A DNA stretch of 61,100 nucleotides from Methanobacteriota archaeon (GTDB lineage: Archaea > Halobacteriota > Methanomicrobia > Methanomicrobiales > Methanospirillaceae): positions 1 through 61,100 of the forward strand of contig JAKPSJ010000136.1 in assembly GCA_029555345.1 (NCBI GenBank), in the 5' to 3' direction. The translations under genes were made by a program, and so were the position numbers. Positions 288 through 53,736 of this stretch are shown here, in pieces. Under the pieces are notes generated by a model. The model did no database searches. It saw nothing but the letters and a program-made list of their open reading frames with translations, and was not told where the DNA came from. The first letter of the stretch is position 1. Each line of letters begins with the position of its first letter.

Positions 288-431
288 GGAGTCACTCCTC
301 CCCGGCCCGGCACCCAGGGGGGTGCCCGGGAAGAACAGGGACCATGAAAAAAGGGAATGAAAGGCTGTGGCGAGGGGCTGGAGCGAACGATGGATAAATG
401 GGAGGTGGAGTCATCCCCCGCGGGGACCGGG

Positions 432-1376
432 TCAGAGGAGACCGAACGATTTCAGCGTCACTTCCGGGTTGACCCCGCCGCAGTGATAGACCACGCCCTC
501 GGAGATCTCGTTGATGACGACTTCTGCCGGGGAAAACAGGGACGTGTCGATCTTGTAGAAGTCGCCGCCAGCCTCTTTGAAGATGTCGTTGAATGGTTTG
601 CCGTATCCCTTCGACTTGTTGCTCGGTATCTTGTCCAGGTAGTCCCGGATCTCGGGCGCCTTCATCGTCAGCATGATGCGGCCGTGGTAGATGGTTGCAT
701 CGTTCGTGACGCCCATCGCCATCTTCGGGCCCCGGACCGGGGGAACCGGGGCAGTGCCGATTGCCGCCGTTATCTTCCGCGTATCGAAATGGAGTTCGTT
801 CAGCTTGAACACGGCTGTCTCCACGCACCGGCCGGAGACCTGGATCGAGCCGACTATCGATGACGTGGGGGCGACCACGGCACAGACGTTCGCCGCGTCG
901 ACGTGGCAGTCCTCCGCGATCTTCTCCATGACCTGCGCATTGGGGAGGTGATCGCTCTCGAGGGCGATGACAGCGGAGTCGAAGTCGTCCTCGTACTCGA
1001 TGACCTCGAACGTGTGCTTCGGCTTGAGCGAAAGCGCCCTCGCAGGCCCGCTGCCCATCGCGAAGTAGTTGTTGTGCTTGATGGTCCACCCCGCCTTCTG
1101 CGACCCGAGGCACGCGATGGAGGGGAAGTCGGTGAAGACATCGATAAACGGGAGGGGACAGTCCTTTATGGACGCCATCCTGAAATTGACCTCTCCAAGG
1201 CCGCCCATGCAGATCTCGGTGAAGGCCCGGCCCGCGGCATACCCGCCGCGTGTACTCACCCCGCAGTCGATGATGCGGGCGCCGTTATCAAGTTCATGGT
1301 ACGCGGCATTGAATTCTTCAGCGTATTCCGCCAGATTCTCGAATATCTCGAGAGCAAGTTCATTGACACTGAGCAC
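432..1376 (-). CDS. mch: Methenyltetrahydromethanopterin cyclohydrolase
   Basis: 314 aa with a GTG start. Full-length resemblance to Mch (LSVNE...IIDCGV...GGL...AMGSGPARAL...TNDATIYHG). Confidence 0.93.
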   Translation of the reverse strand: MLSVNELALEIFENLAEYAEEFNAAYHELDNGARIIDCGVSTRGGYAAGRAFTEICMGGLGEVNFRMASIKDCPLPFIDVFTDFPSIACLGSQKAGWTIKHNNYFAMGSGPARALSLKPKHTFEVIEYEDDFDSAVIALESDHLPNAQVMEKIAEDCHVDAANVCAVVAPTSSIVGSIQVSGRCVETAVFKLNELHFDTRKITAAIGTAPVPPVRGPKMAMGVTNDATIYHGRIMLTMKAPEIRDYLDKIPSNKSKGYGKPFNDIFKEAGGDFYKIDTSLFSPAEVVINEISEGVVYHCGGVNPEVTLKSFGLL

Positions 1377-1453
1377 GTGGAGTACCCCCTTTTACCATAG
1401 AACATACCCGGCAAATAGATAAGAGTTATTAAATGATCGTTTTATAAAAGGGT

Positions 1454-12965: not shown

Positions 12966-13651
12966 GCGTTATCGCCGCTCTGGAAGAGTGCCTGGCAGAA
13001 CACCCTCACCCTCTCCGAAGCCCCTGGCATCAATGGCGTACCGTGGCCGCTGAGCAGGACATCGTACTCGAGTCCAGTCAGTTTTCTCAGCGATCGGATG
13101 GCCAGGTCCATGTCGGGCGTGAACGGCTCCGGCGGACCCTGCAACCGGCCATCCAGGAACCTGATGGCATCGCCGGCAAAGAGGATCCCCCTTTCTTCGC
13201 TGTAGAGGGAGATACTCCCGGGCGTGTGCCCCGGGAGATGGATCACTTCGAGTCCATCGATCGCATCTCCCTCTCTCAATAACACATCCGGCTCGGTGTA
13301 CTCGGTTTGAAAAGAGGACATGGCTTTTTGCGTCGCCTCGTCCAACCCTTTCGGGAGCGGGAGCTCTTCCCTGCCCGCAACGAAGGGAGCATCCTTCTCG
13401 TGGACGAGAAGCCTTGCGCCAGTCGATCGTTTGAGTGCACGGACATTCCCCGTGTGGTCGACATGGCAGTGCGTGAGGACGATATTGCGGATATCCGAGG
13501 GTTTCCTGCCCAATCCATCGATACAACTGAGGATCCTGCCTGCGTTGGAAGGCAGGCCCGTGTCCACGAGAGTGAGGTGATCGGGAAATTCCAGGATGTA
13601 GACGTTCGCTTCTACCCCCTCGACCTGATGCACACCAGGGACGAGTCTCAT
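12962..13651 (-). CDS. MBL-fold metallo-hydrolase
   Basis: HCHVDHTG (HxHxDH) motif. ATG at 13651 is preceded by GGAGG; alternative ATG at 13681. The stop overlaps the MFS start (ATGA). Confidence 0.85.
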   Translation of the reverse strand: MRLVPGVHQVEGVEANVYILEFPDHLTLVDTGLPSNAGRILSCIDGLGRKPSDIRNIVLTHCHVDHTGNVRALKRSTGARLLVHEKDAPFVAGREELPLPKGLDEATQKAMSSFQTEYTEPDVLLREGDAIDGLEVIHLPGHTPGSISLYSEERGILFAGDAIRFLDGRLQGPPEPFTPDMDLAIRSLRKLTGLEYDVLLSGHGTPLMPGASERVRVFCQALFQSGDNA

Positions 13652-18538: not shown

Positions 18539-18566
18539 ACCAAATGGGCCTGGGATGTGGGTTTCA

Positions 18567-20480: not shown

Positions 20481-20688
20481 CGCCGCGAACGGGACGAGTG
20501 CGAGGGATATGGGGAGCCGGAGGAGCCCGCAGTACCAGCTGGCGAGGGTGAACAGGAGGAGAGAGACGGGGAACGAGACGGGGTAGGCGTACTCGGCGAA
20601 CGTGCGCCTCAGGAAAGGCCAGACCGAGACCTGGAGGAAGGAGACGAGGAGGAGCCAGGAGATAACCGAGAGGGCCTGGAACGAATAG

Positions 20689-21654
20689 TCAATCAGCCTT
20701 CATCCCCCCGAACCTGTCCTGGAACGCACTCCTGATGCTGTCGAGCACCCACCCTCCGAAATAGTAGATGGAGACGATCCCCCCGCCGAGCGTGACGAGG
20801 TTCTTGACCAGGTGGTCGATGACAGCAATCATTGCTGCATCGGACGCCGGGACCCCGGCGAGGGCGAAGGTGAGCGCCAGCGCCAGCTCGTACGTGCCGA
20901 CCCCGCCGGGTGTCAGGGGCACGGCCTTGACGAGGTTTCCGACCACGATGCCGAGGACTACCACTGCAAACGGCACCTGTTCCTGGAACATCAGCACCAC
21001 GAAGACGCAGACGAGCACGTCCATGAGCCAGATCACGATGGAACTGGCCGAGAGGACGACAAGGGAGCGGTAAGAGAGGGACGCTTCGCGCACCTGCGCA
21101 ATAATGCCGAGGACCACCCGCATGACCCGGTTCTCGGAGGTCACCTTCCCGGCGAGGGCGAGGAAGAAGAAGAAGAAGACCCCCGCGACGATGGGGACGA
21201 TGATGATCGTGTAGAACCAGCCGGGGGCGTTGAGCACGAAGAGGATCGAGACAGCGCCGAGAATCGCCACCATCAGGATATCGAAGACGCGCTCCACGAC
21301 CAGCGAAGAGAGTCCCTGCGATGCCGTGGCCCTGTCATCGTGGCGGAGGATGAATATCCTCACGAGGTCCCCCAGCCGCGCAGGCACGATCAGGTTCGCC
21401 GTCTGGCTCACAAAGATGCAGGCGACGGAGAAATTGACCCTGACACGGACCCCCAGCGAAGAGAGGATGCTCCTGTACCGGAACCCCCGCAGCCACCACG
21501 CAGCGAGGCAGACTGCCGAGGCGATCGCGAGGAAATACCACACGGCGTGCCCTGCGGCAGCGAGGAGGTCGTCCCATATCGTGTAGAGCATGAATGCGAT
21601 GATCCCGGCAGCGAGGAGTGTCGAGACCAGAATTGCACTAACTTTCTTCCACAT
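20689..21654 (-). CDS. UPF0104 / lysylphosphatidylglycerol-synthase-TM-region-like (flippase-like) membrane protein
   Basis: 321 aa with about 8 TM helices. PARLGDLVR motif. 17-nt overlap with the upstream GT2 stop. Confidence 0.8.
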   Translation of the reverse strand: MWKKVSAILVSTLLAAGIIAFMLYTIWDDLLAAAGHAVWYFLAIASAVCLAAWWLRGFRYRSILSSLGVRVRVNFSVACIFVSQTANLIVPARLGDLVRIFILRHDDRATASQGLSSLVVERVFDILMVAILGAVSILFVLNAPGWFYTIIIVPIVAGVFFFFFLALAGKVTSENRVMRVVLGIIAQVREASLSYRSLVVLSASSIVIWLMDVLVCVFVVLMFQEQVPFAVVVLGIVVGNLVKAVPLTPGGVGTYELALALTFALAGVPASDAAMIAVIDHLVKNLVTLGGGIVSIYYFGGWVLDSIRSAFQDRFGGMKAD

Positions 21655-31179: not shown

Positions 31180-31353
31180 ACCTGTCGCTCCGCTGCACCC
31201 CCTCCTCGAAAGGCATGCCCGGCCCGGCGGTGCATGCGGGGGAGACTCCTCTTCAGCAGGAGAAGTTGGGTTTTTCCCGATATGATGGTTGCCCCCCCTC
31301 CTGCCGTCATATTGATGGAATGCCGCAGGCAACAGAAGAGGGAGATACGGCAT

Positions 31354-32364
31354 ATGACGTTCCTATCGGACAATCTGTCCCTCTCGCCCGAAAAACCCCT
31401 CTTTGCGAGTGTCCTTGCCAACACGATGCTCTCCGTCGTCCCCGGGATGTCCGGCGCCGGGCCGACCCCGGAAAAGACCCTCCTCACCCCGATCCTCGAT
31501 GCAGAACTGGTGCTCCGGGGAAAGATAACGAGCATGCCATCGAGGCCGGACACCCCGACCGGCTGCCCGACCCCCGCATCCATAACGCGGGCGATGATGG
31601 ACATGTGCGGGATCATCCCCCTCTTCATCAATGCAGGGCTCGCCCACCGCCCCACGGTCCCCTGCCTCGACGCCTACGGCGAACCCGGGAGCGATCCCCG
31701 GTACGGAGACGCCGTCCCCCGCGCCGGGGAACTGTTCGAGGCGGGACGGGTCATCGGCGCATTCCTCTCGCGTGCGTACGACTCGCTCGTCCTGGGGGAG
31801 AGCGTGCCCGGCGGGACGACGACTGCCCTCTGCGTGCTCCGTGCGCTGGGTTACCCCGCGCGGGTCAGTTCCAGTTATGCCGACAACCCCGTGGGGATGA
31901 AGGAAGCCGTCTGGAACGAGGTCTCCCGGAGGATCGGAGATCGGGCGCCGCTCTCCCCGCTCGATACCGCCAGGTGCTGCGGCGACCCGATGATCACCCT
32001 CTCGGCCGGCGTCGGGAAGGGTTTCGGGCAGGGGCTCGTCCTGGCCGGCGGCACCCAGATGCTCGCGGTCGCCGCGCTCATGAAGGCGATGTCCCTGCCC
32101 CTCCCGGCGATAGCCACGACCGTTTACGTCAGGGACGACCCTTCGGCAAACTTCCCGGAGACAGCCGGGCAGATCGGAGTCCCTGTCGCTTACGTCGACC
32201 CGGGGTTCGGGGACCTGGGGCATGCGGGCCTCGCGCGGTACTGCACCGGGGAGGTGAAGGAGGGGATGGGCGCCGGGGGCGCCATGTTCCTCGCTGCAAC
32301 CATGGGGCATTCTCCCGGGGAGATCAGGAAAAAGATACTCGCGACGGTAATCTCTTATCAGTGA
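31354..32364 (+). CDS. cobT: Archaeal CobT-type nicotinate-nucleotide:dimethylbenzimidazole phosphoribosyltransferase (UPF0284)
   Basis: ATG at 31354 (MTFLSDN...). GESVPGGTTTAL motif. Divergent from cobZ-cobS. Confidence 0.8.
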   Translation: MTFLSDNLSLSPEKPLFASVLANTMLSVVPGMSGAGPTPEKTLLTPILDAELVLRGKITSMPSRPDTPTGCPTPASITRAMMDMCGIIPLFINAGLAHRPTVPCLDAYGEPGSDPRYGDAVPRAGELFEAGRVIGAFLSRAYDSLVLGESVPGGTTTALCVLRALGYPARVSSSYADNPVGMKEAVWNEVSRRIGDRAPLSPLDTARCCGDPMITLSAGVGKGFGQGLVLAGGTQMLAVAALMKAMSLPLPAIATTVYVRDDPSANFPETAGQIGVPVAYVDPGFGDLGHAGLARYCTGEVKEGMGAGGAMFLAATMGHSPGEIRKKILATVISYQ

Positions 32365-32470
32365 AGGCGCAGGAATGGCATGATAATGTGATCGCTTCGC
32401 ATTTTTCTCTCGTCTCCGCGTCTGCAGGAGAGGCATTTTCACCTCTTACGCGCCACATTAGTGAAGACCC

Positions 32471-33034
32471 ATGCTCCCCCTGTTCGTGGTCAATAATTAC
32501 GGGCAGTTCAACCACCTCATCCTCCGGATGTTCCGTGACCTGGGCATCGAGGCACGGATGGTCCCAAATAACATGCAACCGGACGAAGTCGCCGCCTCCT
32601 GCCGTGGGATAGTGCTCGGGGGAGGCCCAGACATCCGGAAGTGCGGGAACTCCCCCCTCTTCCTCCACCTGGGCATACCGGTCCTGGGGATATGCCTCGG
32701 CCTCCATGTCATCGCGAGGGAGTTCGGGGGCCGAGTCGACCCGGGCCGTGCAGGGGGCTACGGACCTGTCGAAGTCGAGCTGGTGGAGAGATCGGAGATC
32801 CTCGGGGGATACCCGGAGAAGATACTCGTGTGGGCGTCCCATGCCGACGAGGTGGCCGAGGTCCCTCCCGGTTTCCGCCTCATCGCGCGATCAGGGGTGT
32901 GCGCACACGAGGCGATAGACTCCCCGGACAGGAAGATCTACGGCCTGCAGTGGCACCCCGAGGTCAGCCATACACGGGACGGGGAGAAGGTATACCGGAA
33001 CTTCGATGCGATCTGCAGGGAGCACGGGGTATGA
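32471..33034 (+). CDS. guaAA: GMP synthase, glutamine amidotransferase subunit A
   Basis: GICLGLH nucleophile elbow and a WHPE His-Glu pair. Confidence 0.9.
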   Translation: MLPLFVVNNYGQFNHLILRMFRDLGIEARMVPNNMQPDEVAASCRGIVLGGGPDIRKCGNSPLFLHLGIPVLGICLGLHVIAREFGGRVDPGRAGGYGPVEVELVERSEILGGYPEKILVWASHADEVAEVPPGFRLIARSGVCAHEAIDSPDRKIYGLQWHPEVSHTRDGEKVYRNFDAICREHGV

Positions 33035-37797: not shown

Positions 37798-38232
37798 TTA
37801 CTGGAAGAGCGAACTCTCGTGGAGTTTCGCCCCGCTCTTCTGGATCGCTGCTATTGCGGCATCGACATGGTCGACCCGCAGGATGAGGACGGCACCCTCC
37901 CTTCCAGAGTAGGCATAAGCGTATTCGATGTTTATGCCGTTCCGCCCGAGGATATCCGCCACCTCGTACAGGCCCCCGGGTTCGTCCTTCATCTGGACGG
38001 CTATCACGTCGGTGAAGGCGACGTTGAACCCCATCTTCGTGAGTTTCTCGTACGCTCTCTGTGGCTCGTCCACGAGTGCCCTCACGACCCCGAACCCGTT
38101 CGCCTCGGCGATCGAGAACGCGAGGATGTTTATCTTCTCATCCTGGAGTGCCCGGGCGATTGCCGCGAGCCTGCCGGGCTTGTTCTCTGAAAAGACCGAT
38201 ATCTGCTTTATGACAAACTTGCTGGCTCCCAT
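37798..38232 (-). CDS. ACT-domain protein (tandem ACT)
   Basis: 144 aa; QISVFSENKPGRLA. Lies 1 nt downstream of the paaK paralog. Confidence 0.85.
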   Translation of the reverse strand: MGASKFVIKQISVFSENKPGRLAAIARALQDEKINILAFSIAEANGFGVVRALVDEPQRAYEKLTKMGFNVAFTDVIAVQMKDEPGGLYEVADILGRNGINIEYAYAYSGREGAVLILRVDHVDAAIAAIQKSGAKLHESSLFQ

Positions 38233-38233
38233 G

Positions 38234-39538
38234 TCAGATCTCCCTCCTGTCGATGACCCTCTTCGCTTTTCCCTCGAAGCGGGGGAGTGAGCCGGGCTCG
38301 ACGAGTTCGACGTTCACACCGACATTGAGGACGTTCCGCAGCTTGTGCTCGACCTTCCTCCGGATCTCCATGAGGTCCGTGATCTTATCGGAAAACGCGT
38401 TGGCAGCGACCTCCACCTGGACGAGCATCTCGTCGAGCGCCCCTTTCCTGTCGACGATGATCTGGAAGTGTTCGCCGACCTCGGGAATGGTCATCAAGGC
38501 GTACTCGACCTGGGTCGGGAAGACGTTGATCCCGCGGATGATCAGCATGTCGTCCACCCTCCCCGTGATCCTCTGGACGCGCGGGTGAGACCTGCCGCAA
38601 GGGCAGATGCCCTCATCGATGGAGCTGATGTCCCCGATTCTGTACCTGATCAGGGGGAGAGCTTCCTTCTGGAGCATGGTGACGACCATCTCGCCGCGCT
38701 CTCCCGGCGGGAGCGGCTCCCCGGTCCTGGTATCGAGTATCTCGACGTAGGCAATGTCCCCCCACACGTGGAACCCCTTCTGCTCGGTGCATTCGCAGAA
38801 CATCGGGCCGGAGAGCTCGCTCGTCCCGTATATGTCGTACGCCTTTATCCCGAGCCAGTTCTGGATGCGCTGGCGCATGTTCTCGGACCAGGGCTCTGCA
38901 CCGAGAATGCCCGTTCGCAACTTCGTGTCTTTCTTGATGCTGACCCCCATCTTATCGGCGACCTCCCCGATATGCAGCAGGTACGACGGTGTGCATGCAA
39001 TGGCGGTGGCGCCGAGGTCCTGCATCAGTTCGATCTGGCGTTCCGTATTCCCGACGCTCGTCGGGATCACCGTTGCGCCGATGCGTTCAGCCCCGTAATG
39101 GTTCCCGAGCCCGCCTGTGAAGAGGCCGTACCCGTAGCTCACCTGGATGACGTCGCCCCGCCCTAAGCCGCACGAGACCATGGCGCGTGCTATCGAGACA
39201 GTCCAGTTCTCGATGTCCCTCGCCGTGTACCCAACGACGGTGGGCTTCCCTGTCGTCCCCGAGGAGACGTGGTACCTGACCAGTTCTTCCTGGGGTGCGA
39301 GGAAGATCTTGTCAGGATAGTTGTCCCGGAGGTCCTTTTTGTACATGAAAGGGAGCTTCTGGATATCGGCGAGCGTCCTGATGTCGTCGGGATGGACCTT
39401 GTTCTCCTCCATGCGGTGGTGATAGAACGGCGAGAAACTGTACAGCTTGTAAACGAGTGTTTTGAGCAGCCTGTACTGGAGTTTCTTGATGTCTTCGAGG
39501 GGCATCTCTTCGATCCGCGGGTCCCACGCTCTCGTCAT
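38234..39538 (-). CDS. paaK: Phenylacetate-CoA ligase family (PaaK / coenzyme F390 synthetase-like adenylate-forming enzyme), copy 1
   Basis: SSGTTGKPT AMP-binding motif and RGINVFP. Confidence 0.9.
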   Translation of the reverse strand: MTRAWDPRIEEMPLEDIKKLQYRLLKTLVYKLYSFSPFYHHRMEENKVHPDDIRTLADIQKLPFMYKKDLRDNYPDKIFLAPQEELVRYHVSSGTTGKPTVVGYTARDIENWTVSIARAMVSCGLGRGDVIQVSYGYGLFTGGLGNHYGAERIGATVIPTSVGNTERQIELMQDLGATAIACTPSYLLHIGEVADKMGVSIKKDTKLRTGILGAEPWSENMRQRIQNWLGIKAYDIYGTSELSGPMFCECTEQKGFHVWGDIAYVEILDTRTGEPLPPGERGEMVVTMLQKEALPLIRYRIGDISSIDEGICPCGRSHPRVQRITGRVDDMLIIRGINVFPTQVEYALMTIPEVGEHFQIIVDRKGALDEMLVQVEVAANAFSDKITDLMEIRRKVEHKLRNVLNVGVNVELVEPGSLPRFEGKAKRVIDRREI

Positions 39539-40827
39539 AGGGCACCTGCCCTTCTGTCCACGATGCGCTTTGCCTTTCCCTCGAACCGGGGCAGGGACCC
39601 GGGTTCCACCAGGTTCACCGTGGTCCTGAGTTCGAGGGCGTCACGCAGTTCCTTGACGACCTTCTTCTGGATCCTTGCGAGGTCCTGGAGTTCCCCGGAG
39701 AAATAGTCCCGGTTAATCTCGACATCGATCGTCATCTCGTCGAGGTGGTTGACCCTGTCCACATAGACCATGAACTGGGAACCCACCTCGGGGATGTCCA
39801 AGAGCACATGTTCGATCTGGGATGGAAACACGTTGATCCCTCTGATAACTAGCATATCATCACTCCTCCCCATTATACGTGCGATCTTTTGCCCGCGCCC
39901 ACACGGGCACGAGTCACCCTTGAGCATCGTGATATCCCCCGTGCGGTACCTGACAAGTGGCATGGCCTCCTTGGCGAGCGGGGTGACGACAAGCTCTCCG
40001 CGTTCCCCTTCGCCCAGGACCTCCCCTGTCGCGGGGTCGACGACCTCGACGAGGTAGCAGTCATGCCAGATGTGGAGCCCGTCCCTCTCCCCGCACTCGA
40101 ACGCGACACCCGGGCCGAATAACTCGGACAGCCCGTACGAATCGTAGGCCGTGAGGCCGAGCCGGCTCTCGAGCTCCCTGCGCATGGACTCGGACCATGG
40201 TTCTGCGCCGAAAAGCCCAGTCTTAAGGGAGTCGAGGTGGGCACCCATCTCCTCGGCGACTTCTGCGAGGTGGAGGGCGTAACTCGGGGTGCAGTGGATC
40301 ACGGTGACCCCGAAGTCCTGGATCATCTCGACCTGCCGGCGGGTATTGCCTGTTGCACTGGGAACAACAGTCATCCCGACGAGCTCTGCCCCGTAATGGA
40401 ACCCGAGCCCGCCCGTGAACATGCCGTAATTGACCATGTTCTGGAAGATGTCCCGGTCGGAAAGCCCCACCATGGTCATGTTCCTGGCTATCAGGTTCGC
40501 CCAGGTCCGGATATCCTTTTTCGTGTACCCGACAACGGTCGGCTTTCCCGTCGTCCCGGACGTTGTGTGAATGCGGATGACCCTGTCGATAGGGACGGCG
40601 AAGAAACCGAACGGGTACCCGTTGCGGAGGTCCTGCTTCCTCGTGAAGGGCAACTTCCGGATATCATCGAGTGTCTTTATGTCTCCCGGCCCAATGCCTG
40701 CCTCCCCGAACTTCTGCCTGTAGAATTCCACGTTCTGGACGTGGACCAGCGTCTTTTTGAGGCGTTTCAGCTGGAGGCGTTCCAAATCTCTCTTCGGGAG
40801 TGTCTCGTATTTCTCGTCCCAGAACAT
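39535..40827 (-). CDS. paaK: Phenylacetate-CoA ligase family, copy 2
   Basis: ATG at 40827 (MFWDEKYETLP). TSGTTGKPT motif. The stop overlaps the copy 1 start (ATGA). Confidence 0.9.
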   Translation of the reverse strand: MFWDEKYETLPKRDLERLQLKRLKKTLVHVQNVEFYRQKFGEAGIGPGDIKTLDDIRKLPFTRKQDLRNGYPFGFFAVPIDRVIRIHTTSGTTGKPTVVGYTKKDIRTWANLIARNMTMVGLSDRDIFQNMVNYGMFTGGLGFHYGAELVGMTVVPSATGNTRRQVEMIQDFGVTVIHCTPSYALHLAEVAEEMGAHLDSLKTGLFGAEPWSESMRRELESRLGLTAYDSYGLSELFGPGVAFECGERDGLHIWHDCYLVEVVDPATGEVLGEGERGELVVTPLAKEAMPLVRYRTGDITMLKGDSCPCGRGQKIARIMGRSDDMLVIRGINVFPSQIEHVLLDIPEVGSQFMVYVDRVNHLDEMTIDVEINRDYFSGELQDLARIQKKVVKELRDALELRTTVNLVEPGSLPRFEGKAKRIVDRRAGAL

Positions 40828-41176
40828 GGTCACCGGTCCTCCGAATGCATAGTCTCTGTTTCTGTCTCCGTGTTTTACCCGTTTTCCACTGGCTCGTGCT
40901 CGCTTTTTGGCAATAAAAGGGTCAAATAGCGATTTCACAAGATCTTTACCATAAACTTGTGTTGAAGGGTGAAAAATATTGCCAGGTCATGGCATGCCAG
41001 GGAGGAGTCCCCTGGAGTGGTTCCCTACAGATCTCTCGAAAGATCACGCAGTTCCCCCTCTTTGAAAAGCGATGCATTGATGTATTGACGCCAGGTAAAA
41101 ATTTAGTGCAGTCAGGCTGCGACCGCACGGTGCGGGGCAGCAAGGAGAGTGTACCATCGATCCTGTCCCGTGGTAT

Positions 41177-42112
41177 TTGGTCTCAGGGTTCGGGGCGCAT
41201 ATCAAGGCCACCCCCAGGGTCCTGATAGTGCAGAAGCATGGCCGCACCGAGGAGATACCGCTCTCCGCAGTACGGCACCTCCTGGTCATGGGAGGCCATA
41301 CCATGCATACATCGGCAATCTCCCGCCTCCTTTCTGCAGGATCATCTGTCTCTTTCTTCGAGGCCGATGGAGAACCTCTCGGGGTCTTGAGGCCTTTCGG
41401 ATTTCACTACGACGAGGTCGTCCGCGAGGCGCAGGCAAAAGCGTTCCCCCACTCCCTGGCGCTGGCAATTGCAAAAGGGAGTGCCCAGTCCCGGATCCTC
41501 CTCCTGGTACGGTTACAAGAGAAACTGGGGCAGCCTCTTTTCTACGAGGGGGAGCTCGAGATCCTGGAGAAAAACCTCGGGGAACTCGAATACCTGGTCC
41601 GGCTCGAAGAAGTGAGAAGGGTGCACAGGCTCATCTCCGACATGTATTACGAGATACTTGCCCGGACAGTCCCCGCGGACCTGGGGTTCCGCCGCCGGAC
41701 CTCCCGGCCCCACAGGGACGTTGTCAACACAATGCTCTCGTTTGGGTACGGGCTCCTCTTCGGGAACGTGTGTGTTGCAGTCGTCGGGGCACATCTCGAC
41801 CCGGATATCGGTTTCCTGTCCCGTGGTGGCGCCGGGCTCGTGCATGATCTCTGCGACCCCTTCCAGCCGGCAATGATTGACGATCCTCTCTTTTCGCTCG
41901 TAAGGGATGGGCTCCCGCCCGACGCGTTCGAGTGCAGCCAGGACCGGTGCATCCTTTCGGACGACCTGGTGCAGTCTCTCATCCAGAGGCTTGCACGGAC
42001 GATCCGGCAGGACGTCATCGATTCCCACGTCTCGGCCCTGAAAGAATCCCTGATGAAAAAGACTGATTTTTTCGTCCGTATCCCGGAGCCGGTATCGTTC
42101 AATGGGAAGTGA
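41177..42112 (+). CDS. cas1: Cas1-like protein, orphan (no CRISPR-cas context in the window)
   Basis: 311 aa with a TTG start. Cas1-like N-domain (IPLSAVRHLLVMGGHTMHTSAISRLLSAGSSVSFFEADGEPLGVLRP). Cas1-like C-domain (RPHRDVVNTMLSFGYGLLF...GAHLDPDIGFLS...LVHDLCDPFQPAMID). Confidence 0.8.
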   Translation: MVSGFGAHIKATPRVLIVQKHGRTEEIPLSAVRHLLVMGGHTMHTSAISRLLSAGSSVSFFEADGEPLGVLRPFGFHYDEVVREAQAKAFPHSLALAIAKGSAQSRILLLVRLQEKLGQPLFYEGELEILEKNLGELEYLVRLEEVRRVHRLISDMYYEILARTVPADLGFRRRTSRPHRDVVNTMLSFGYGLLFGNVCVAVVGAHLDPDIGFLSRGGAGLVHDLCDPFQPAMIDDPLFSLVRDGLPPDAFECSQDRCILSDDLVQSLIQRLARTIRQDVIDSHVSALKESLMKKTDFFVRIPEPVSFNGK

Positions 42113-42371
42113 CGACGGAAAAATCAGGGAATGACCTGAAGGGTATCTCGTATATCTCCATCTCCCTGATCAGCGCCCGCGGGCACCCGTAGATCATGGA
42201 TGCGAACTTGTCGAGTGTCAGGGAGTCGCCGCTTGCAGTGATCTTCACGGACCCATCGGGGAGGTTCATCACTTCACCCTTGATGCAGAGCTTTCCGGCG
42301 ATGTTGCGGATGCAATTCCTGAGTCCCACTTTCTGGACCCTTCCGGTAATCCGGATCTCGATTGTCTTCAT
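42099..42371 (-). CDS. acyP: Acylphosphatase-like protein
   Basis: ATG at 42371 (MKTIEIRITGRVQKVGLRN...GEVMNLPDGSVKI). A longer alternative start exists at 42443. Converges on cas1 with a 14-nt overlap. Confidence 0.75.
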   Translation of the reverse strand: MKTIEIRITGRVQKVGLRNCIRNIAGKLCIKGEVMNLPDGSVKITASGDSLTLDKFASMIYGCPRALIREMEIYEIPFRSFPDFSVVTSH

Positions 42372-42533
42372 CCCGGCCGGTTTCCCTGGGGAGATCATAT
42401 GAGAGACGTTTGGTGTACCTGCCACACTAATTTTTATCTTCATTTCCCTTATGGTGCAACCAGCAATTATATAGCAGTATACAGTTTATTGCTGGACAAG
42501 TCCACTCCCTCCCGATCGCCAAAATGAATGCCC

Positions 42534-43889
42534 CTACTTACGGACGAAGCCCATTATCTCTTCGTAAAACTGGTGCGCCTTCTCTTCCGATGCGGACTCG
42601 ACCATCACGCGCACGAGTGGTTCTGTCCCTGAAGGACGGATCAGGGCCCAGGAATCGCCCCTGTTGATCCTGATGCCGTCTGTGAAATCCAGGTTCTCTC
42701 CAGAGAAGTGATCCGCGAGCCTGGCAATCAGGCCCCGGGGGTCCTTTTCCCTGAACTTCTCCTTCATGAAGGTGAAATGCGGCAATGCACTGACCAGGGA
42801 CGAGAGGGGCTCGCCTGTCCGGGCGAGGAGCGAGACCATGGTCGCCGCGGTCATCCCGCCATCCCTGCAGAGCTGGTGGCCGGGATATATCAGCCCGCCG
42901 TTCCCCTCGCCGCCCAGGACGACGGGTGTACCCTGCGCAGCGAGGGCGATCATAGTCCTTGCCACGTAGATGCTCCCGACAGGCGTGTAGACAACCCGGC
43001 AGCCGTACCTCTGGGCGATGACCTCCAGGAGGCGGGAAGTGCTGACAGGGGTGACGATGACCCCCTGCCTCCCTCGGCAGACATGGTCTGCGATCAGGCC
43101 GAACTCCACGTTCTCCTCGATGAAGTTGCCTTTCTCGTCCACGAAGACAGCGCGGTCTGCATCGCCGTCGTGGGCAACGCCGAATCGTGCACCCGTCGCG
43201 GTGACGAGGTCGGCGAGGGGAGAGAGCCCCTCGGGAGAGGGTTCTGGAAGCCTCCCGGGGAAGGTGCCGTCCATCTGGCAGTTGAGGGAGTAGACCCTGC
43301 ATCCCATGCGGCCGAGTATCTCGGGCGTCGTGGCAGCCGCCGCACCGCATCCCGGGTCTGCGACAACTGTCATGTCCTCGCCGATGGAGGGGGGGAAAGC
43401 CCGGGTGACCGCATCCACGTACTCCTCCACGAGGTTCTTTGCAGCGCGTTCGCGCCCCACCCTCTCCCAGCCGGCCATCCGCGATGTCTCCTCGAATATA
43501 TGCTTCTCGAGTGCGATGCTCTCTTCGTCGCCCATTTCAGTCCCGTCGGGTTCCACCACCTTGACGCCGTTGTATTCCGGGGGGTTGTGGGATGCCGTCA
43601 CCACGGCTCCCGCATCGAAATGGGCCCTGACCAGGAACTGGAGTGCCGGAGTCGGGAGGATGCCGCAGTCGACAACGTCACAGCCCGCCGCAAGGAGGCC
43701 GGCCTTCAAGGCACTGGCAAGCGCGGGTCCCGAAGTCCGGGTGTCCCTGCCTACGGCCACGGTCCCCGGCCTCATCGTCCCCAGTGCAAGACCGATCTCC
43801 AGGGCGAGACCGGGGGTCATCTCGGTCCCGACAATACCCCTGACTCCGTTCGTTCCAAAGAGCCTCTTCTCAGTTTTTTTCAGTTGCAT
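42534..43889 (-). CDS. glmM: Phosphoglucosamine mutase / phosphomannomutase family
   Basis: FGTNGVRG, the TASHNPPEYNG phosphoserine loop and GDGDADR Mg site. Confidence 0.9.
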   Translation of the reverse strand: MQLKKTEKRLFGTNGVRGIVGTEMTPGLALEIGLALGTMRPGTVAVGRDTRTSGPALASALKAGLLAAGCDVVDCGILPTPALQFLVRAHFDAGAVVTASHNPPEYNGVKVVEPDGTEMGDEESIALEKHIFEETSRMAGWERVGRERAAKNLVEEYVDAVTRAFPPSIGEDMTVVADPGCGAAAATTPEILGRMGCRVYSLNCQMDGTFPGRLPEPSPEGLSPLADLVTATGARFGVAHDGDADRAVFVDEKGNFIEENVEFGLIADHVCRGRQGVIVTPVSTSRLLEVIAQRYGCRVVYTPVGSIYVARTMIALAAQGTPVVLGGEGNGGLIYPGHQLCRDGGMTAATMVSLLARTGEPLSSLVSALPHFTFMKEKFREKDPRGLIARLADHFSGENLDFTDGIRINRGDSWALIRPSGTEPLVRVMVESASEEKAHQFYEEIMGFVRK

Positions 43890-44644
43890 GCATCTTTCCT
43901 CCCGGCTGCCAGCGCGGTCCGGAGAGCACTGTCGATGCGGTCGAAGACCTTCGGGAACGCCGACAGGACGTCTCCGGGCGTTGGACCGCCGACAGCGAAG
44001 AGAACCCTGTCTTCCCCTCCGAAATAGAGCCCCTGGTGGAGGTGGACCCTCACCCTCACCGTTGCCGCTCCGCCTGCCATATCCCTGGACATCTCTCTGA
44101 TCATTGGAAAAAAACGTTCATAAAACTCTCTTCGCTCCGGGGCAGGCAGGGAGGATGAACCTGCCGGGAGTGTGCCTGTCGATGCAGCGAGCCCGTCGCC
44201 CCACATGTCCCGTGCCAGGCCGCAGGGAGAGAAATAGTCGGGGAACCTGTCCAGGCAGGTGAGGATATCCTGAGGACGGGGATTGCCGAGCACGATGTTC
44301 TCCACCCCGGTAAGGTCCCCCATGACCGCCTTGGGCAGGGGGAGCGACTTGAAACCTTCCAGGACGGTGAAGGACGTGCCGGAAGAAGAGATCATATCGA
44401 GCACGGCCCAAAGGGAGACTGCATCCATGACAACGACCGTCTTTTCGGAATCGATCCCGGCAGAGATCGGGGCACCTGCCTCGAGAAAGAGGGTCGTATC
44501 CTTTCCAGCCGGGAGCGCAAACCGGTGGTGCCCGAGATGCTTGACGACTGCCACATCCCCCTTATTTGCGAGGAGCGGGACGAGACTGCGGATGAGGGTC
44601 GTCTTCCCCGAACCCGATGCCCCGCAGACCTGGATGACCTTCAC
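43880..44644 (-). CDS. mobB: MobB-domain P-loop protein with a C-terminal extension (degenerate MoaE-like?)
   Basis: GTG at 44644 overlaps the upstream stop (GTGA). CGASGSGKTTL Walker A. 10-nt overlap with the glmM start. The rest of the 412-aa ORF is an artefact. Confidence 0.75.
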   Translation of the reverse strand: MKVIQVCGASGSGKTTLIRSLVPLLANKGDVAVVKHLGHHRFALPAGKDTTLFLEAGAPISAGIDSEKTVVVMDAVSLWAVLDMISSSGTSFTVLEGFKSLPLPKAVMGDLTGVENIVLGNPRPQDILTCLDRFPDYFSPCGLARDMWGDGLAASTGTLPAGSSSLPAPERREFYERFFPMIREMSRDMAGGAATVRVRVHLHQGLYFGGEDRVLFAVGGPTPGDVLSAFPKVFDRIDSALRTALAAGRKDACN

Positions 44645-45240
44645 GGCAGGTTGCCCCCCTCGTCTTCCCCGTCGTCTCCCTGCCACCGGGATGTCTCCAC
44701 CCCCTCCTCTCCCTTCCGGGGAGTGGTCTCCTCCTCCGCCATGCGAGTACTGAGGATGTGTGCTGCTGCCTTCCCGACACTCCTCATGACCTCCGTGATG
44801 CGGTCCTCTATCTCTATCTCCTCGTCTATCTCGAGAGAGGTCCTCTCCACCTCGAGGAGGAAGCGGGCGACTTCGCTTGCCTCGAAGAGGAGGTCGTCGA
44901 GTTCCTCGCTCGTAAAAAATCCGCACATCGCCCCATAGAAGAACGTTGCACCCGATTTGTACACTTTCTTCTTGAAGGAGTTCCGGGCCTGGTTCACTGC
45001 CTGGGGCGTGTAGGGCTCCTGCATAAAAGGAACGAGACTGGGGAGGTTCTGCCCGATGAACGTCATTTCGGCGCCGCTCCTCGTGCGGAAATCGGTGCAA
45101 AGCCGGGCGATCGCCCATTCCCTTGCGGTGATGTATGTCCGCTTCCGCAGGAACTTGTTCACTTTTTGATACGTCTCCCCGTCTACCTTCTTGAACTTGC
45201 GGTACTTGTTCACGTCATCCTGTCCGAAACGCGTGCGCAT
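44641..45240 (-). CDS. Conserved archaeal hypothetical protein (DUF5806-like) with an acidic C-terminal tail
   Basis: 199 aa; YRKFKKVDGETYQKVNKFLRKRTYITAREWAIARLC... Confidence 0.75.
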   Translation of the reverse strand: MRTRFGQDDVNKYRKFKKVDGETYQKVNKFLRKRTYITAREWAIARLCTDFRTRSGAEMTFIGQNLPSLVPFMQEPYTPQAVNQARNSFKKKVYKSGATFFYGAMCGFFTSEELDDLLFEASEVARFLLEVERTSLEIDEEIEIEDRITEVMRSVGKAAAHILSTRMAEEETTPRKGEEGVETSRWQGDDGEDEGGNLP

Positions 45241-47183: not shown

Positions 47184-48131
47184 ATGCCAGGGGGATTTTT
47201 CTCGGAGTGGCTCGGACGCTACCGCCACTACCTGAGAATGCGGAACTATTCCCCGAGGACCATCCAGAGCTACGAGCAGGTCGTGAGGCATTTCGCCTAT
47301 TACGTGTGGCTCCGGCGGAATATCGACCCCCAGAAGCTCATGGTGTACTGGGAGGACTTCTCGAAGGCGCGCGCAGAGACCGACGTCGAAGTGGGCCCCG
47401 CCCTCCTCGAGGACTACCTCTCGTTCATGAGCTCCACGCGGACTTACAGGCCAAAGACCCTGCACCGCATCATATCGACACTCAGCTCTTTCTATCGGTT
47501 CCTCTACTCCCAGGGGGCTGTCACGACCAATCCCCTGATAGGCGTGGAACGCCCGAAGATCAAGGGGCAGGAGCTCCGGTACCTGAAGCACAGCCAGGTC
47601 ATCCGGTTGATAGAGTCTATCGAGGACCAAAGGGACCGCCTCATTGTCAGGACGATCTATGCAACCGGTGTCAGGGTCTCGGAACTGTGCGGCATCAACA
47701 TCGAGGACATAGATTTCGAGGACGGGACGATCCGCGTGCGAGGCAAGGGCGGGAAGATCAGGATTGTTTTCGTCGACCCGGATACTCTCGACGAGATGGA
47801 CAGGTTCATCGGCTCACGCATCGAGGGCCCCCTGTTCCCCGGGCAGATGGGTCACAATCTCTCCCCACGGGCCGTCCAGCACATTTTCCGGAAGTACGCC
47901 CCCGAGGGGATCACCCCCCACAAGATCCGGCACAGCTACGCGAGCGAGCTGTACAGGCGTTCCAAGAACCTCCGCGTCGTCCAGGAGAACCTTGGCCATA
48001 CATCCATAAAGACAACCGAGATCTACCTGCACACGGATCTCGAGGAGAGAAAAAAGGTCTACCAGGAGTACTTCCCGCTTGCGGGGCGGCAGGGAAAGCG
48101 CGGGGAAAAGGATGTCGACCGGGAAGCATAG
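47184..48131 (+). CDS. xerA: Tyrosine recombinase XerA (Xer/integrase family)
   Basis: ATGVRVSEL (Arg), HKIRHSYA (His-x-x-Arg) and GHTSIKTTEIYLH (His...Tyr). Confidence 0.9.
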   Translation: MPGGFFSEWLGRYRHYLRMRNYSPRTIQSYEQVVRHFAYYVWLRRNIDPQKLMVYWEDFSKARAETDVEVGPALLEDYLSFMSSTRTYRPKTLHRIISTLSSFYRFLYSQGAVTTNPLIGVERPKIKGQELRYLKHSQVIRLIESIEDQRDRLIVRTIYATGVRVSELCGINIEDIDFEDGTIRVRGKGGKIRIVFVDPDTLDEMDRFIGSRIEGPLFPGQMGHNLSPRAVQHIFRKYAPEGITPHKIRHSYASELYRRSKNLRVVQENLGHTSIKTTEIYLHTDLEERKKVYQEYFPLAGRQGKRGEKDVDREA

Positions 48132-50764: not shown

Positions 50765-51919
50765 CTACTTCTTCAGCCCTGCCGCAACAGCGACCCAGGC
50801 CATCCCAACCGCGACAAGGGCGAGTATTGAAGAGAGACCTGATCTATTCGTGGGAGACGCATTTACGGGTATATTTGTCGCCTGGACGGTGGTCACCGTG
50901 GTGGTCGTGGCTGCCACTGTCGTGGTTTTTTCTGTAGGCAGAGTGACGACCGGGCCCACAAGAGCATAAACCCCCCCTCTCCCGAGGGATGCAGTCACGT
51001 TCTCTCCTGCAACGGCCGAGGAGAGGAGCGTCCATGTATCGTTCGAGAAGAAGGCCAGGGTACTGTTCTCCTCAACTTTTCCTTTCCCGAGGCGGAAGAC
51101 GATCGTACCTGGCGGAGAAAAGATCTCGTCATAGGGCACGACGGCATAAGGGCCGGCTATGACCCGCATCCCTCCAGGCGCACCTGGTGAAGGGACGCTG
51201 ACGATACTGGCATGGGAGCCTGCCGGAACGCTGACTTTCACGATGCCATCGGCAGAGACGAAGGAGACCGGTTCCTGGGACCCGGACGGTCCGGAGACAG
51301 TCCCGGTGCCTGGAGACTGGGTGGCATCCCCTGACCCGACAGGGATCGTCTCGTAGAGGACCTGGGTCCCATTCACCAGGGCGGCCAGCGAGATCGTCCC
51401 GGAAGGCAGGCCATCCACCACGAACCCGATCTCGGAATTTGCGGGGCCTTCCTTGACCCCTGTCACCTGGAAGAGGGTGGTAATCGACCGTGCTGACGGG
51501 AGAGTGGTCCCGGAGAGGCGGAAGTAGTCATATGTCCCGGCCGCGATATCGTAGACCTTCGTGGTCGTATACTTGCCATCCGTGGACTTTCCGGAAACGG
51601 CAACAATAGTGTCCTCTTTTTTCACCTCGAGGCGGTTCTGGGAGGTTCCCTCCAGGGTCGCCGTGATGCTGCTCGTCTTCAGAGAGAACGGCATCTTGAA
51701 CTGGCTCATCTGGAACTGGAACTCGGTGTTGGGAGAGACGCTGTATTTTGCCTCCACGAGGAGAGAGAATTGCGCACCGTCCGGGAGGTCGGTCACGGTT
51801 ATAGTGATGGGATACCCGTTTGCGATGGTTTCGGGGCGGGCAGTGATGGTCACCGATACGGCCGGGATGATGAGTGACGAGAGGAAGAGAAGGACAACCA
51901 GCACCCTCTTCAGGTGCAT
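50765..51919 (-). CDS. Secreted surface protein with a Thr-rich stalk and C-terminal TM anchor
   Basis: ATG at 51919 (MHLKRVLVVLLFLSSLIIPA). TTTVAATTTTVTTV stalk. Tail is LSSILALVAVGMAWVAVAAGLKK. Confidence 0.7.
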   Translation of the reverse strand: MHLKRVLVVLLFLSSLIIPAVSVTITARPETIANGYPITITVTDLPDGAQFSLLVEAKYSVSPNTEFQFQMSQFKMPFSLKTSSITATLEGTSQNRLEVKKEDTIVAVSGKSTDGKYTTTKVYDIAAGTYDYFRLSGTTLPSARSITTLFQVTGVKEGPANSEIGFVVDGLPSGTISLAALVNGTQVLYETIPVGSGDATQSPGTGTVSGPSGSQEPVSFVSADGIVKVSVPAGSHASIVSVPSPGAPGGMRVIAGPYAVVPYDEIFSPPGTIVFRLGKGKVEENSTLAFFSNDTWTLLSSAVAGENVTASLGRGGVYALVGPVVTLPTEKTTTVAATTTTVTTVQATNIPVNASPTNRSGLSSILALVAVGMAWVAVAAGLKK

Positions 51920-52129
51920 TCCACTTTTTTCTGGAATCTCCATAAAGGATCCTGGGTTCGCCCAGGGAAAAACCTTGCCGGGGTTGCTGAGTTGTTACCA
52001 ACAGCATTCTGGTAATCACTTCCAGGATCCTCTCTCCGGGGTGGCCGTCGCAGCACTGGGTGAACTCTTCCACCATCTCCTGTCTTCGTGGGTCACCTGC
52101 ATGATAACCGGAGCCCCTGTCACAGCTGT

Positions 52130-52825
52130 TCAGGGAGGATCCAGTCTCCCTCCCGGCATGACCCGGCCCCTCTCCCAGTCGATGCAGATCGCTCCCCCAA
52201 GGAGGACGAGGGCGACAACCAGGTTGTCCCCCCGTGAATCCCATCCGGTGAGGGGGCATAAGGACCCGCCCGCTGCACAGAGGATCAACCAGAACGCAGA
52301 AAAACCAAGGAGAACTGACAGCCCGGCCGAGATCTTCACCCCGGGATGCACATCCCCCCGGAGCCCGGCCAGGAGAAAGAGGAACGCTGTTCCTGCGAGC
52401 CATTCTGCAGGCTGAAGGAGATCGGCGAGGATGTACGGGATCAACGCGATCTCCTCTCCTGGAGGGAAAGGTCCAAGAAGGGGCCAGAACCAGGTCGCAG
52501 GCTGCAACCACATCGCGTCGAGGGCCTGGTGGAGGAAAAACCCGAGGCCAAGGGCGATGAACAGACCCGGGCTCCGGGTTGTCCGTCGGGAAAAAGCCCA
52601 GTAAGCGACACATACGCCGATCAGGACAAGCCACATCGCGAGGCTGTGCGAGTAAATCCGCCCGTAACCCACTGTCCCGGAGATGAGCAGCCCAAGAGGC
52701 TTGTCGACCATGTCGGGGAGGACTGCTCCCAGCGTGCAGGCGAGGGCCAGCCTCCTGTCGCCGCTGGGCAGGGAGAGGAGGATCCCGAGCAGGAGGCCCG
52801 AGAGGAGGTGGCACATCACGTACAT
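52130..52825 (-). CDS. Membrane-bound metal-dependent hydrolase-like protein (YdjM/DUF457-like)
   Basis: 231 aa, polytopic; MCHLLSG and HSL/HQALD motifs. Confidence 0.7.
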   Translation of the reverse strand: MYVMCHLLSGLLLGILLSLPSGDRRLALACTLGAVLPDMVDKPLGLLISGTVGYGRIYSHSLAMWLVLIGVCVAYWAFSRRTTRSPGLFIALGLGFFLHQALDAMWLQPATWFWPLLGPFPPGEEIALIPYILADLLQPAEWLAGTAFLFLLAGLRGDVHPGVKISAGLSVLLGFSAFWLILCAAGGSLCPLTGWDSRGDNLVVALVLLGGAICIDWERGRVMPGGRLDPP

Positions 52826-52947
52826 TGGGAGGATCGTTCGACGGCGGGGGATATATCCGGGCAGGGTTGGTGATCAGTGACGGGGTTGCCAGGAAAAGAC
52901 AAGGGTATTTAAGACACCCTGCATATTCCTGTAATGGAGATGTCACA

Positions 52948-53736
52948 ATGCCTTCCAACATCCAGGGAATGACCATTCCAGGGTTGCTTCTCCTCGTTCC
53001 CCTGCTCTCTCTGATTCTCCTGCCTGCCAACGCAGGGGGGGTGCCAGGACCGGACGAGGCCATCCCACCAACGAACGCTACCGGGTGGAACGACCTGGGG
53101 AATACCTATCTCAGCCAGTTACGCTTCGACCGTGCAGCAGATGCCTATTCTCAGGCTATCCTGCTTGATCCCGGCTTTGCCCGGGCGTACTTCAATCGCG
53201 GCAAGTCTTACGCGGAGCTGGGCCTTTACGACGAGGCGATTGCAGATTACGAGAAGGCCATAGAATGCGACCCCTCGCTCAAGGGAGTGGTTGAAAATTT
53301 CCTCGATACTGCAGTCAGGAACCGTTACGTGACCCTTCCGGGTGAAGCGCTTCTCAAGGGCAGTTCGTTCCCCGGCGGGCAGTACCTTGCAGTCGACAAC
53401 ACGCGTGGCAGGTCCGATGTCGTGATCGCCCTGGCGCCGCAGGGACAGCGGGGGGCAATCCTTGCCGTATATGTCCCGAAGGGGTATTCCAAGCGGTTCG
53501 ACCAGGTCGTCCCTCCCGGGATCTACGATGTCTATATCACGACCGGAGAACGCTGGAACCCGGAAGAGAAGTCATTTGCAGTCGAGACAGGATGCCTCGT
53601 GTGGACGGCGCCGCAGGTCTTTGCGGGGGTCCAGAACAAGGGGTTGACACTGACATTCATCGACTGGCACCCCCCGTCGTCCTGGTGGGACCACTCCCTT
53701 CTGCCCATTGCACCTGAGCAATTCCCTGTCATATAA
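52948..53736 (+). CDS. Secreted TPR-repeat protein
   Basis: ATG at 52948 (MPSNIQGMTIPGLLLLVPLLSLILLPANA). TPR units AYSQAILLDPGFARAYFNRG and AIADYEKAIECDP. Confidence 0.8.
   Translation: MPSNIQGMTIPGLLLLVPLLSLILLPANAGGVPGPDEAIPPTNATGWNDLGNTYLSQLRFDRAADAYSQAILLDPGFARAYFNRGKSYAELGLYDEAIADYEKAIECDPSLKGVVENFLDTAVRNRYVTLPGEALLKGSSFPGGQYLAVDNTRGRSDVVIALAPQGQRGAILAVYVPKGYSKRFDQVVPPGIYDVYITTGERWNPEEKSFAVETGCLVWTAPQVFAGVQNKGLTLTFIDWHPPSSWWDHSLLPIAPEQFPVI

Follow-up and report, generated by a model that had tools for sequence, protein, structure and literature searches.

Degenerate active site in a stand-alone Cas1 from a methanogen genome: an orthologue of Cas1-solo group 1

What does a Cas1 protein do in a stretch of DNA in which no other part of a CRISPR (short palindromic repeats, clustered and regularly interspaced) system was found? 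The question is raised by a gene, here called cas1-solo, at 41177..42112 (+) of a 61,100-nt stretch from a Methanobacteriota archaeon of the Methanospirillaceae (assembly GCA_029555345.1, contig JAKPSJ010000136.1, positions 1 to 61,100; the whole stretch is hereafter the window). Its product has 311 amino acids (aa) and its first in-frame start is TTG. A reading made from the letters alone (the sequence-only reading) had taken it for a degenerate stand-alone Cas1, neither an adaptation module nor a casposon, with a non-integrase role. The fold, the lost Glu and His, the lack of partners, the vertical context and purifying selection all speak for that view. We found that the gene almost certainly belongs, as an orthologue, to Cas1-solo group 1, which is specific to Methanomicrobiales. 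Overall, the best explanation, which we hold to be probable though well short of secure, is a catalytically disabled Cas1 exapted as a nucleic-acid-binding cellular protein.

Both Cas1 halves described in the sequence-only reading, including the two peptides it quoted, are present in the translation of the 311-aa TTG-start open reading frame (ORF). That reading had also proposed a Cas1 profile search, an AlphaFold model, a Cas1 phylogeny and a synteny comparison across Methanomicrobiales; the profile, model and synteny results agree with it. Significant full-length matches were found to PF01867 (E=8.2e-50; 170 bits, the cutoff being 22.3; aligned over profile positions 3-281 out of 283) and to TIGR00287 (137.8 bits versus a cutoff of 71.7). 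The product scores far under cutoff for every subtype-specific NCBIfam Cas1 model, the top scores coming from I-D and III-A type Cas1 models. Cas1 chains also rank first in a PDB sequence search, the best being Synechocystis 7cr6, Archaeoglobus 4n06 and Thermotoga 4xtk. The AlphaFold2 model, computed with 24 family sequences as input (mean predicted local distance difference test score 91.7, predicted template-modelling (TM) score 0.88), has an N-terminal beta domain (strands within residues 2-71) and a C-terminal helical domain (helices within 80-294), and Foldseek matches it to the Cas1 and casposase structures 4n06, 7kft, 4xtk and 6opm (TM 0.80-0.85). The protein is a full-length Cas1 with the two-domain fold. 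Like canonical Cas1 (E. coli YgbT/Cas1, A. fulgidus 4N06, Synechocystis I-D 7CR6; TM 0.8), it keeps the core motifs R-x-x-R-P-x-x-D-x-x-N, G-Y and D-L-x-(D/E)-x-F. Unlike canonical Cas1, its family has an unusually conserved N-terminal domain with motifs of its own (GFGxHIKAT and HLLxxGGHxxHT). Neither the Pfam profile nor the model shows a helix-turn-helix or similar DNA-reading domain added to the Cas1 fold.

To map the active site, E. coli K-12 Cas1 was aligned by MAFFT with canonical Cas1 proteins, members of the family and the window protein itself; the mapping is the same in phmmer alignments to 7cr6 and 4n06. The E. coli catalytic tetrad E141, H208, D218 and D221 corresponds to H150, S215, D224 and D227 of the window protein and is thus incomplete. 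A by-eye comparison in the sequence-only reading had called two catalytic positions replaced and the acidic pair retained, and the alignment to E. coli Cas1 upholds both calls: E141 has become His150 and H208 Ser215, and the pair stands as D224 and D227. A further difference from canonical Cas1 lies beside the catalytic Glu, where the glycines of the G-x-E-G motif are replaced in the family by R148 and by Arg or Lys at position 151.

Among 130 family proteins, position 150 is occupied by His (92), Tyr (21), Glu (7), Asp (3), Asn (3), Phe (3) or Leu (1), and position 215 by His (79), Asn (15), Ser (11), Thr (7), Arg (7), Phe (4) and others, so that the four ex-catalytic positions show 29 different tetrads. 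The tetrads of the window's own clade are H-S-D-D, H-T-D-D and H-F-D-D, with no His at 215. Within the family, positions 150 and 215 drift freely, constraint being relaxed there and strong elsewhere. E126, R148, Y157, E159, R163, R173, R174, D181, N184, D235 and R257 are invariant in 130/130 proteins, and E145, H34, H41 and C258 nearly so. We also considered a new metal site formed by the N-terminal His cluster H8, H34, H41 and H44 and rejected it: the cluster is conserved in the core family only, with D, N or Q in its place in divergent Methanocorpusculum-like and other members.

The group to which this gene belongs, Cas1-solo group 1, is said to have been described by Makarova, Wolf and Koonin in 2013. 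A word-indexed search returned more than 100 proteins with 50-91% identity to the window protein, and its named matches come only from Methanolinea, Methanoregulaceae, Methanomicrobiaceae, Methanogenium and 'Methanomicrobiales archaeon'; identity to Methanolinea metagenome-assembled genomes (MAGs) is 81-91%. In a scan with a single genome for each GTDB species, 258 species genomes had a relative; the 80 of them that were listed are all from Methanomicrobiales or from methanogen MAGs with less precise names. Wherever relatives carry a name, they are Methanomicrobiales (Methanolinea, Methanoregula, Methanogenium, Methanoculleus, Methanocalculus, Methanofollis, Methanospirillum and Methanocorpusculum), the more divergent members being those of Methanofollis, Methanospirillum and Methanocorpusculum. 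When all representatives were searched, 24 of them, with identities as low as 35%, matched at E<=1e-30; the next matches are canonical Cas1 proteins, with E-values near 1e-20. This gap and a neighbour-joining tree both set the family, whose alignment has 61% mean column identity, apart from canonical Cas1.

Group 1 has been reported to occur in Methanomicrobiales alone and without horizontal gene transfer, every member lacking part of the active-site set (Krupovic et al. 2014, BMC Biol 12:36, PMC4046053); casposases make up a separate clade, group 2, whose active sites are intact (PMC4046053). It has also been termed 'probably vestigial' (PMC9755687). The window gene shows the restriction to Methanomicrobiales with vertical inheritance, the clade distinct from both CRISPR Cas1 and casposases, and the incomplete active site; it stands alone, without CRISPR or cas neighbours, as group 1 genes do, and nothing material separates it from them. 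It is therefore of an already known kind, an ordinary orthologue, and our result is a rediscovery of a published family, not a new lineage. Nothing in the window copy is unexpected beyond a possible 5' frameshift.

Is such a gene still doing something? We compared the ratio of nonsynonymous to synonymous substitution rates (dN/dS, Nei-Gojobori) of window genes against five relatives. For cas1-solo the ratio is 0.08-0.14 (0.14 for the pair with the 91% relative and 0.08-0.10 for more distant pairs), which is indistinguishable from the 0.03-0.17 of its neighbours paaK, ACT, acylphosphatase, glmM-like and DUF5806. Since the ratio equals that of neighbouring housekeeping genes, cas1-solo does not look vestigial or decaying. 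Purifying selection is equally strong within the Methanolinea clade that lacks His215 (dN/dS ~0.1). As this clade, which includes the window gene, has lost the His and yet is under the same selection, the function of the protein appears to be independent of the canonical Glu/His chemistry.

The chromosomal context tells of vertical inheritance as well. In the window, the gene diverges from a paaK-paaK-ACT operon (two PaaK-like AMP-forming ligases and an ACT-domain protein; 37798..40827 (-); Pfam AMP-binding/AMP-binding_C_2 and ACT) and converges on an acylphosphatase gene (42099..42371 (-); PF00708, E=1.7e-15), with a 14-nt overlap between the 3' ends of the two ORFs; the ORFs and Pfam matches confirm this arrangement as the sequence-only reading had given it. 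Among 86 loci with enough flank, the acylphosphatase gene lies directly downstream and convergent, 0-500 nt away, in nearly all, and paaK-paaK-ACT lies upstream and divergent in most. The block is kept at 35% identity (L089) and is broken in some lineages. At L088 a DeaD-like gene follows cas1-solo and the acylphosphatase adjacency is lost; Methanocalculus (L063, L073, L074) and other loci such as L055 have cas1-solo without a nearby paaK; and the order in Methanocorpusculum L090 is RNase HII, UPF0146, archaemetzincin-like, cas1 and Obg-like GTPase. Because the neighbours are unrelated housekeeping enzymes in divergent and convergent orientation, we read the block as inherited gene order and not as a functional module, and with its breakage in some lineages the synteny looks historical. 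The Methanogenium locus adjoins genes for thymidylate synthase and the PolD large subunit. In two genomes that are complete or chromosome-level, cas1-solo lies within ~35 kb of record coordinate 1 (L001, CP091277.1 13821-34795; L079, OY969100.1 15146-32042), which may reflect proximity to the replication origin.

An adaptation module would be expected to have an adjacent cas2, with or without cas4, and an array, and we found none of these in the 61-kb window. Tandem Repeats Finder detected no CRISPR-like array there, and among 60 non-overlapping window ORFs of at least 90 aa, a filter that a Cas2 below 90 aa would escape, cas1-solo is the only one to match any PADLOC cas model. These two scans rule out a hidden CRISPR module among what they covered, and no cas neighbours were shown in related loci. 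The signs of a casposon are likewise missing: the ten largest other ORFs and the ten immediate neighbours contain no DNA polymerase B (PolB) domain, no convincing inverted repeats flank cas1-solo, and the gene sits on no island of guanine+cytosine (GC) content (0.55-0.60 at the gene versus 0.58-0.68 nearby, without a step). Both absences had been asserted in the sequence-only reading and stand after these scans. With the fixed synteny, the missing casposon signs led us to reject a casposon or other mobile element. The likeness to casposases (group 2, e.g. Methanosarcina mazei, 6OPM) is that of a methanogen Cas1 homologue outside CRISPR loci with a similar fold (TM 0.82-0.84); unlike cas1-solo, casposases have all four catalytic residues, PolB, terminal inverted repeats (TIRs), target-site duplications and a patchy distribution.

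Acylphosphatase and Cas2 are both small ferredoxin-like proteins, and we considered whether the convergent neighbour could be a functional Cas2-like partner. This idea was rejected: the genes are convergent, and the ORF fits the acylphosphatase profile and, by eye, keeps both signature motifs with the catalytic Arg and Asn. The pairing of the two genes is nearly universal, but its loss in L088 and in Methanocorpusculum L090 also counts against a partnership.

We suggest that cas1-solo is a single-copy, chromosomally fixed and vertically inherited Cas1 paralogue that has lost the catalytic Glu and, in the window's lineage, the catalytic His as well, and that most probably no longer integrates or cuts DNA. 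That it is non-catalytic we regard as likely. Cas1 proteins form homodimers through the N-domain, and the N-terminal domain of the family is strongly constrained. The Sulfolobus Cas1 SSO1450, a precedent for nucleic-acid binding that does not depend on catalysis, reportedly binds DNA and RNA with high affinity independent of sequence, a finding ascribed to Han and colleagues in 2009, and E. coli Cas1 is said, from work by Babu and colleagues in 2011, to bind branched DNA and to have links to repair. The protein would be a homodimer that binds nucleic acid in a constitutive process such as chromosome maintenance, repair or recombination, its old active-site cleft having been remodelled into a basic, metal-independent binding pocket. 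For cas1-solo itself, we infer dimerisation, nucleic-acid binding and the cellular process, and a nucleic-acid-binding housekeeping role has in our judgement about an even chance of being right.

Several observations weigh against this picture. The commonest tetrad of the family is H-H-D-(D/E) (56/130), whose residues might still permit transition-metal binding; D224 hardly varies, and position 227 nearly always has an acidic residue (D or E). The conserved glutamates E126, E145 and E159 would be less expected on a plain DNA-binding surface than at a catalytic or metal site or in buried salt bridges. Glu is found at the E141-equivalent position in a subclade (P0106, L062 and L068, and also L046, L047, L049, L050 and L053), and the full E-H-D-E set in one protein (P0106) and two species loci (L062, 6383-7282; L068, 8001-8900). 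These E-H-D-E members keep the family synteny and run counter to the 2014 statement that no member of group 1 has the full set. Finally, no conserved neighbour among the loci compared points to DNA metabolism.

These same residues make up the case for the main rival to a non-catalytic protein, namely that cas1-solo is still an enzyme whose remodelled metal site (His150 or the His-His-Asp set with D224 and D227, or E126/E145/E159) cuts or joins nucleic acid or carries out some other chemistry. The commonness of H-H-D-(D/E), the conservation of D224 and position 227, the family-specific glutamates (E126 and E159 invariant, E145 nearly so) and the Glu-150 subclade with its three complete E-H-D-E sets all favour it. 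However, seven residues at position 150 and at least ten at position 215, including F, L, R and P, are found under equally strong purifying selection, the window clade with its S, T or F at 215 has a dN/dS of ~0.1, and bulky Arg and Lys have replaced the glycines around the catalytic Glu. We therefore consider an enzyme unlikely. If cas1-solo were the remnant of a CRISPR-cas locus or casposon, with the window copy a pseudogene through a 5' frameshift, the 'probably vestigial' verdict on group 1 (PMC9755687) and a 1-nt deletion that cuts off the GTG start used by the closest relative would both fit; yet the 311-codon body is intact, dN/dS is 0.08-0.14 as in the neighbouring housekeeping genes, and the family is spread over 258 species genomes at 61% mean column identity. 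The short N-terminus, moreover, seems to be tolerated, as the homologue at L010 starts after PWYL and the first strand in the model opens with residue 2. A vestige thus seems very improbable to us.

The divergent arrangement with paaK-paaK-ACT, conserved in most loci, also invites the idea of a sequence-specific regulator acting on that operon or on its own gene. The candidate target would be a palindrome in the divergent intergenic region (TGCCAGGTCATGGCA, 40980..40994, no strand assigned), which adjoins an A/T-rich box and follows the pattern TGYCA-N5-TRDCA. The pattern occurs in 52/81 cas1-upstream regions at 1.0 per kb versus a background of 0.0077 per kb, a more than 100-fold enrichment, and where cas1 and paaK have separated it adjoins cas1 and not paaK in L001, L075 and L020 (Methanogenium, Methanoculleus and one Methanolinea locus, respectively). 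On the other side, it stays with paaK in L041, L042, L057, L065 and L069, and because it travels with paaK after the genes have parted, regulation of the paaK operon by cas1-solo is improbable. To judge by where it is found, the palindrome probably serves the paaK-paaK-ACT operon, and not cas1, as an operator or promoter element. The Methanocalculus loci and others such as L055 keep cas1-solo without an adjacent paaK, L090 has another context altogether, and no DNA-reading domain accompanies the Cas1 fold, so we give a regulator little credence. Least credible of all is an integrase acting in trans for a CRISPR-cas locus elsewhere, or as part of a casposon. The protein is a full-length Cas1, but its catalytic Glu and His are replaced, no cas2, cas4, effector or array lies within 61 kb, and PolB, TIRs and a GC island are all absent. 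In addition, casposases form the group 2 clade, in which active sites are intact (PMC4046053), and a fixed, order-wide chromosomal synteny is the opposite of how defence systems or mobile elements behave. The same contrast holds with canonical Cas1: cas1-solo has no cas2 and no array and is fixed in one order, not patchy or horizontally transferred.

A catalytically disabled, exapted Cas1 is hence the explanation we retain, and it allows a bolder and decidedly tentative reading, whose three parts we would credit together only with reservation. Group 1 would then be no relic; throughout an archaeal order, Cas1 would for the first time have been exapted to a core cellular function that is neither defence nor transposition; the cleft would have been rebuilt on R148, R163, R173, R257, E126, E145 and E159, either to recognise nucleic-acid structure or for a new His-His-Asp metal chemistry; and the E-H-D-E lineages (P0106, L062, L068) may have regained integrase-type catalysis. 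At the family level, our data add to the published account of group 1 these E-H-D-E members, the housekeeping-grade selection and the paaK/cas1/acylphosphatase block. Occurrence in 258 species genomes, housekeeping-level dN/dS, a promoter-like element and invariant charged residues argue for a real function and against the term 'probably vestigial'. The family offers a natural experiment on what becomes of the Cas1 integrase scaffold after integration ends, and it sits near the base of the debate on how CRISPR adaptation arose from casposases.

The possible frameshift concerns the start of the gene. TTG 41177 is the first in-frame ATG, GTG or TTG after a stop at 41096, and conserved IDPVPWY codons lie in frame upstream of it without a canonical start codon before them. 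The starts of close homologues lie 10-16 codons farther upstream, and the protein alignment shows a (V/I)PW motif common to them. The region that encodes this extension (MRGGKEQCIIDPVPWY in P0001), at 41130..41176 (+), is split over two frames in the window. GTG 41130, at which the 91%-identical P0001 starts, stands here in a different frame from the Cas1 body and begins a 32-codon ORF that ends at 41225 (within ORF 40959..41225). A DNA alignment places the cause after GGAG (~41148), where one base present in 5/5 Methanolinea relatives is missing from the window. Either the assembly is in error here, or the N-terminus is really truncated and translation restarts at TTG. A short N-terminus is plausible because cas1-solo at locus L010 starts right after its PWYL codons, at the very next codon and with an in-frame TAG upstream, and because strand 1 in the AlphaFold2 model of the window protein has residue 2 as its first.

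Upstream of the gene, a motif at 41064..41086 (+), reading AAAGCGATGCATTGATGTATT in the window, resembles the family consensus AAAACGATGmaTTrATkTA, which we found at -135..-55 from codon 1 in 72/82 distinct upstream regions (0.002 expected per window). It is the probable core promoter of a monocistronic gene, of the type with a B recognition element (BRE) and TATA box. Near-matches to AACGATGnnTTrAT were also observed at 386-399 (+) and 1428-1441 (-), making three in the window versus 0.18 expected, and the latter lies ~55 nt upstream of the gene at 432..1376 (-). Their occurrence suggests that this is a common BRE/TATA architecture in the organism. Structured RNA in the intergenic region was rejected: no Rfam family matches anywhere in the window, and a hairpin seen in the window's intergenic region is not conserved in relatives. 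No tRNA was found in the window.

Two starts in the neighbourhood probably deserve correction. For the acylphosphatase gene, whose ORF extends to 42443, the likely start is ATG 42371 (90 aa, as called in L087) and not the longest-ORF start at 42443. For the first ligase gene, paaK_A, it is probably ATG 40827 (MFWDEKYE) and not GTG 40938 (ORF 39535-40938 (-)); its homologues are 429-434 aa long, and tblastn matches begin at query residue 36-39. Past the acylphosphatase gene come genes for a member of the phosphoglucosamine/phosphoglucomutase family, for MobB and DUF5806, for a PAS-domain response regulator and for a tyrosine recombinase. The 412-aa ORF at 43880-45118 (-) is over-long: it matches MobB only at residues 160-263, and its 5' part overlaps, in another frame, the DUF5806 gene at 44641-45240 (-) (E=3.6e-70). 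Relatives have a MobB of ~250 aa and then a DUF5806 protein of ~190-217 aa. Four ORFs have no Pfam match at E<=1e-5, namely 18555-20735 (+), 11502-13205 (+), 51528-53063 (-) and 31215-32612 (+) (726, 567, 511 and 465 aa, respectively); these may encode proteins not yet characterised or else be spurious ORFs of high-GC DNA. The tyrosine recombinase (Phage_integrase with a SAM-like N-domain; 47184-48131 (+)) lies ~5 kb downstream of cas1-solo and is found at a similar distance from it in distant relatives (L003, L006, L089), and DDE transposases are present nearby in L005 and L006. Instead of a prophage integrase, this gene could encode a conserved chromosomal recombinase of the XerA type.

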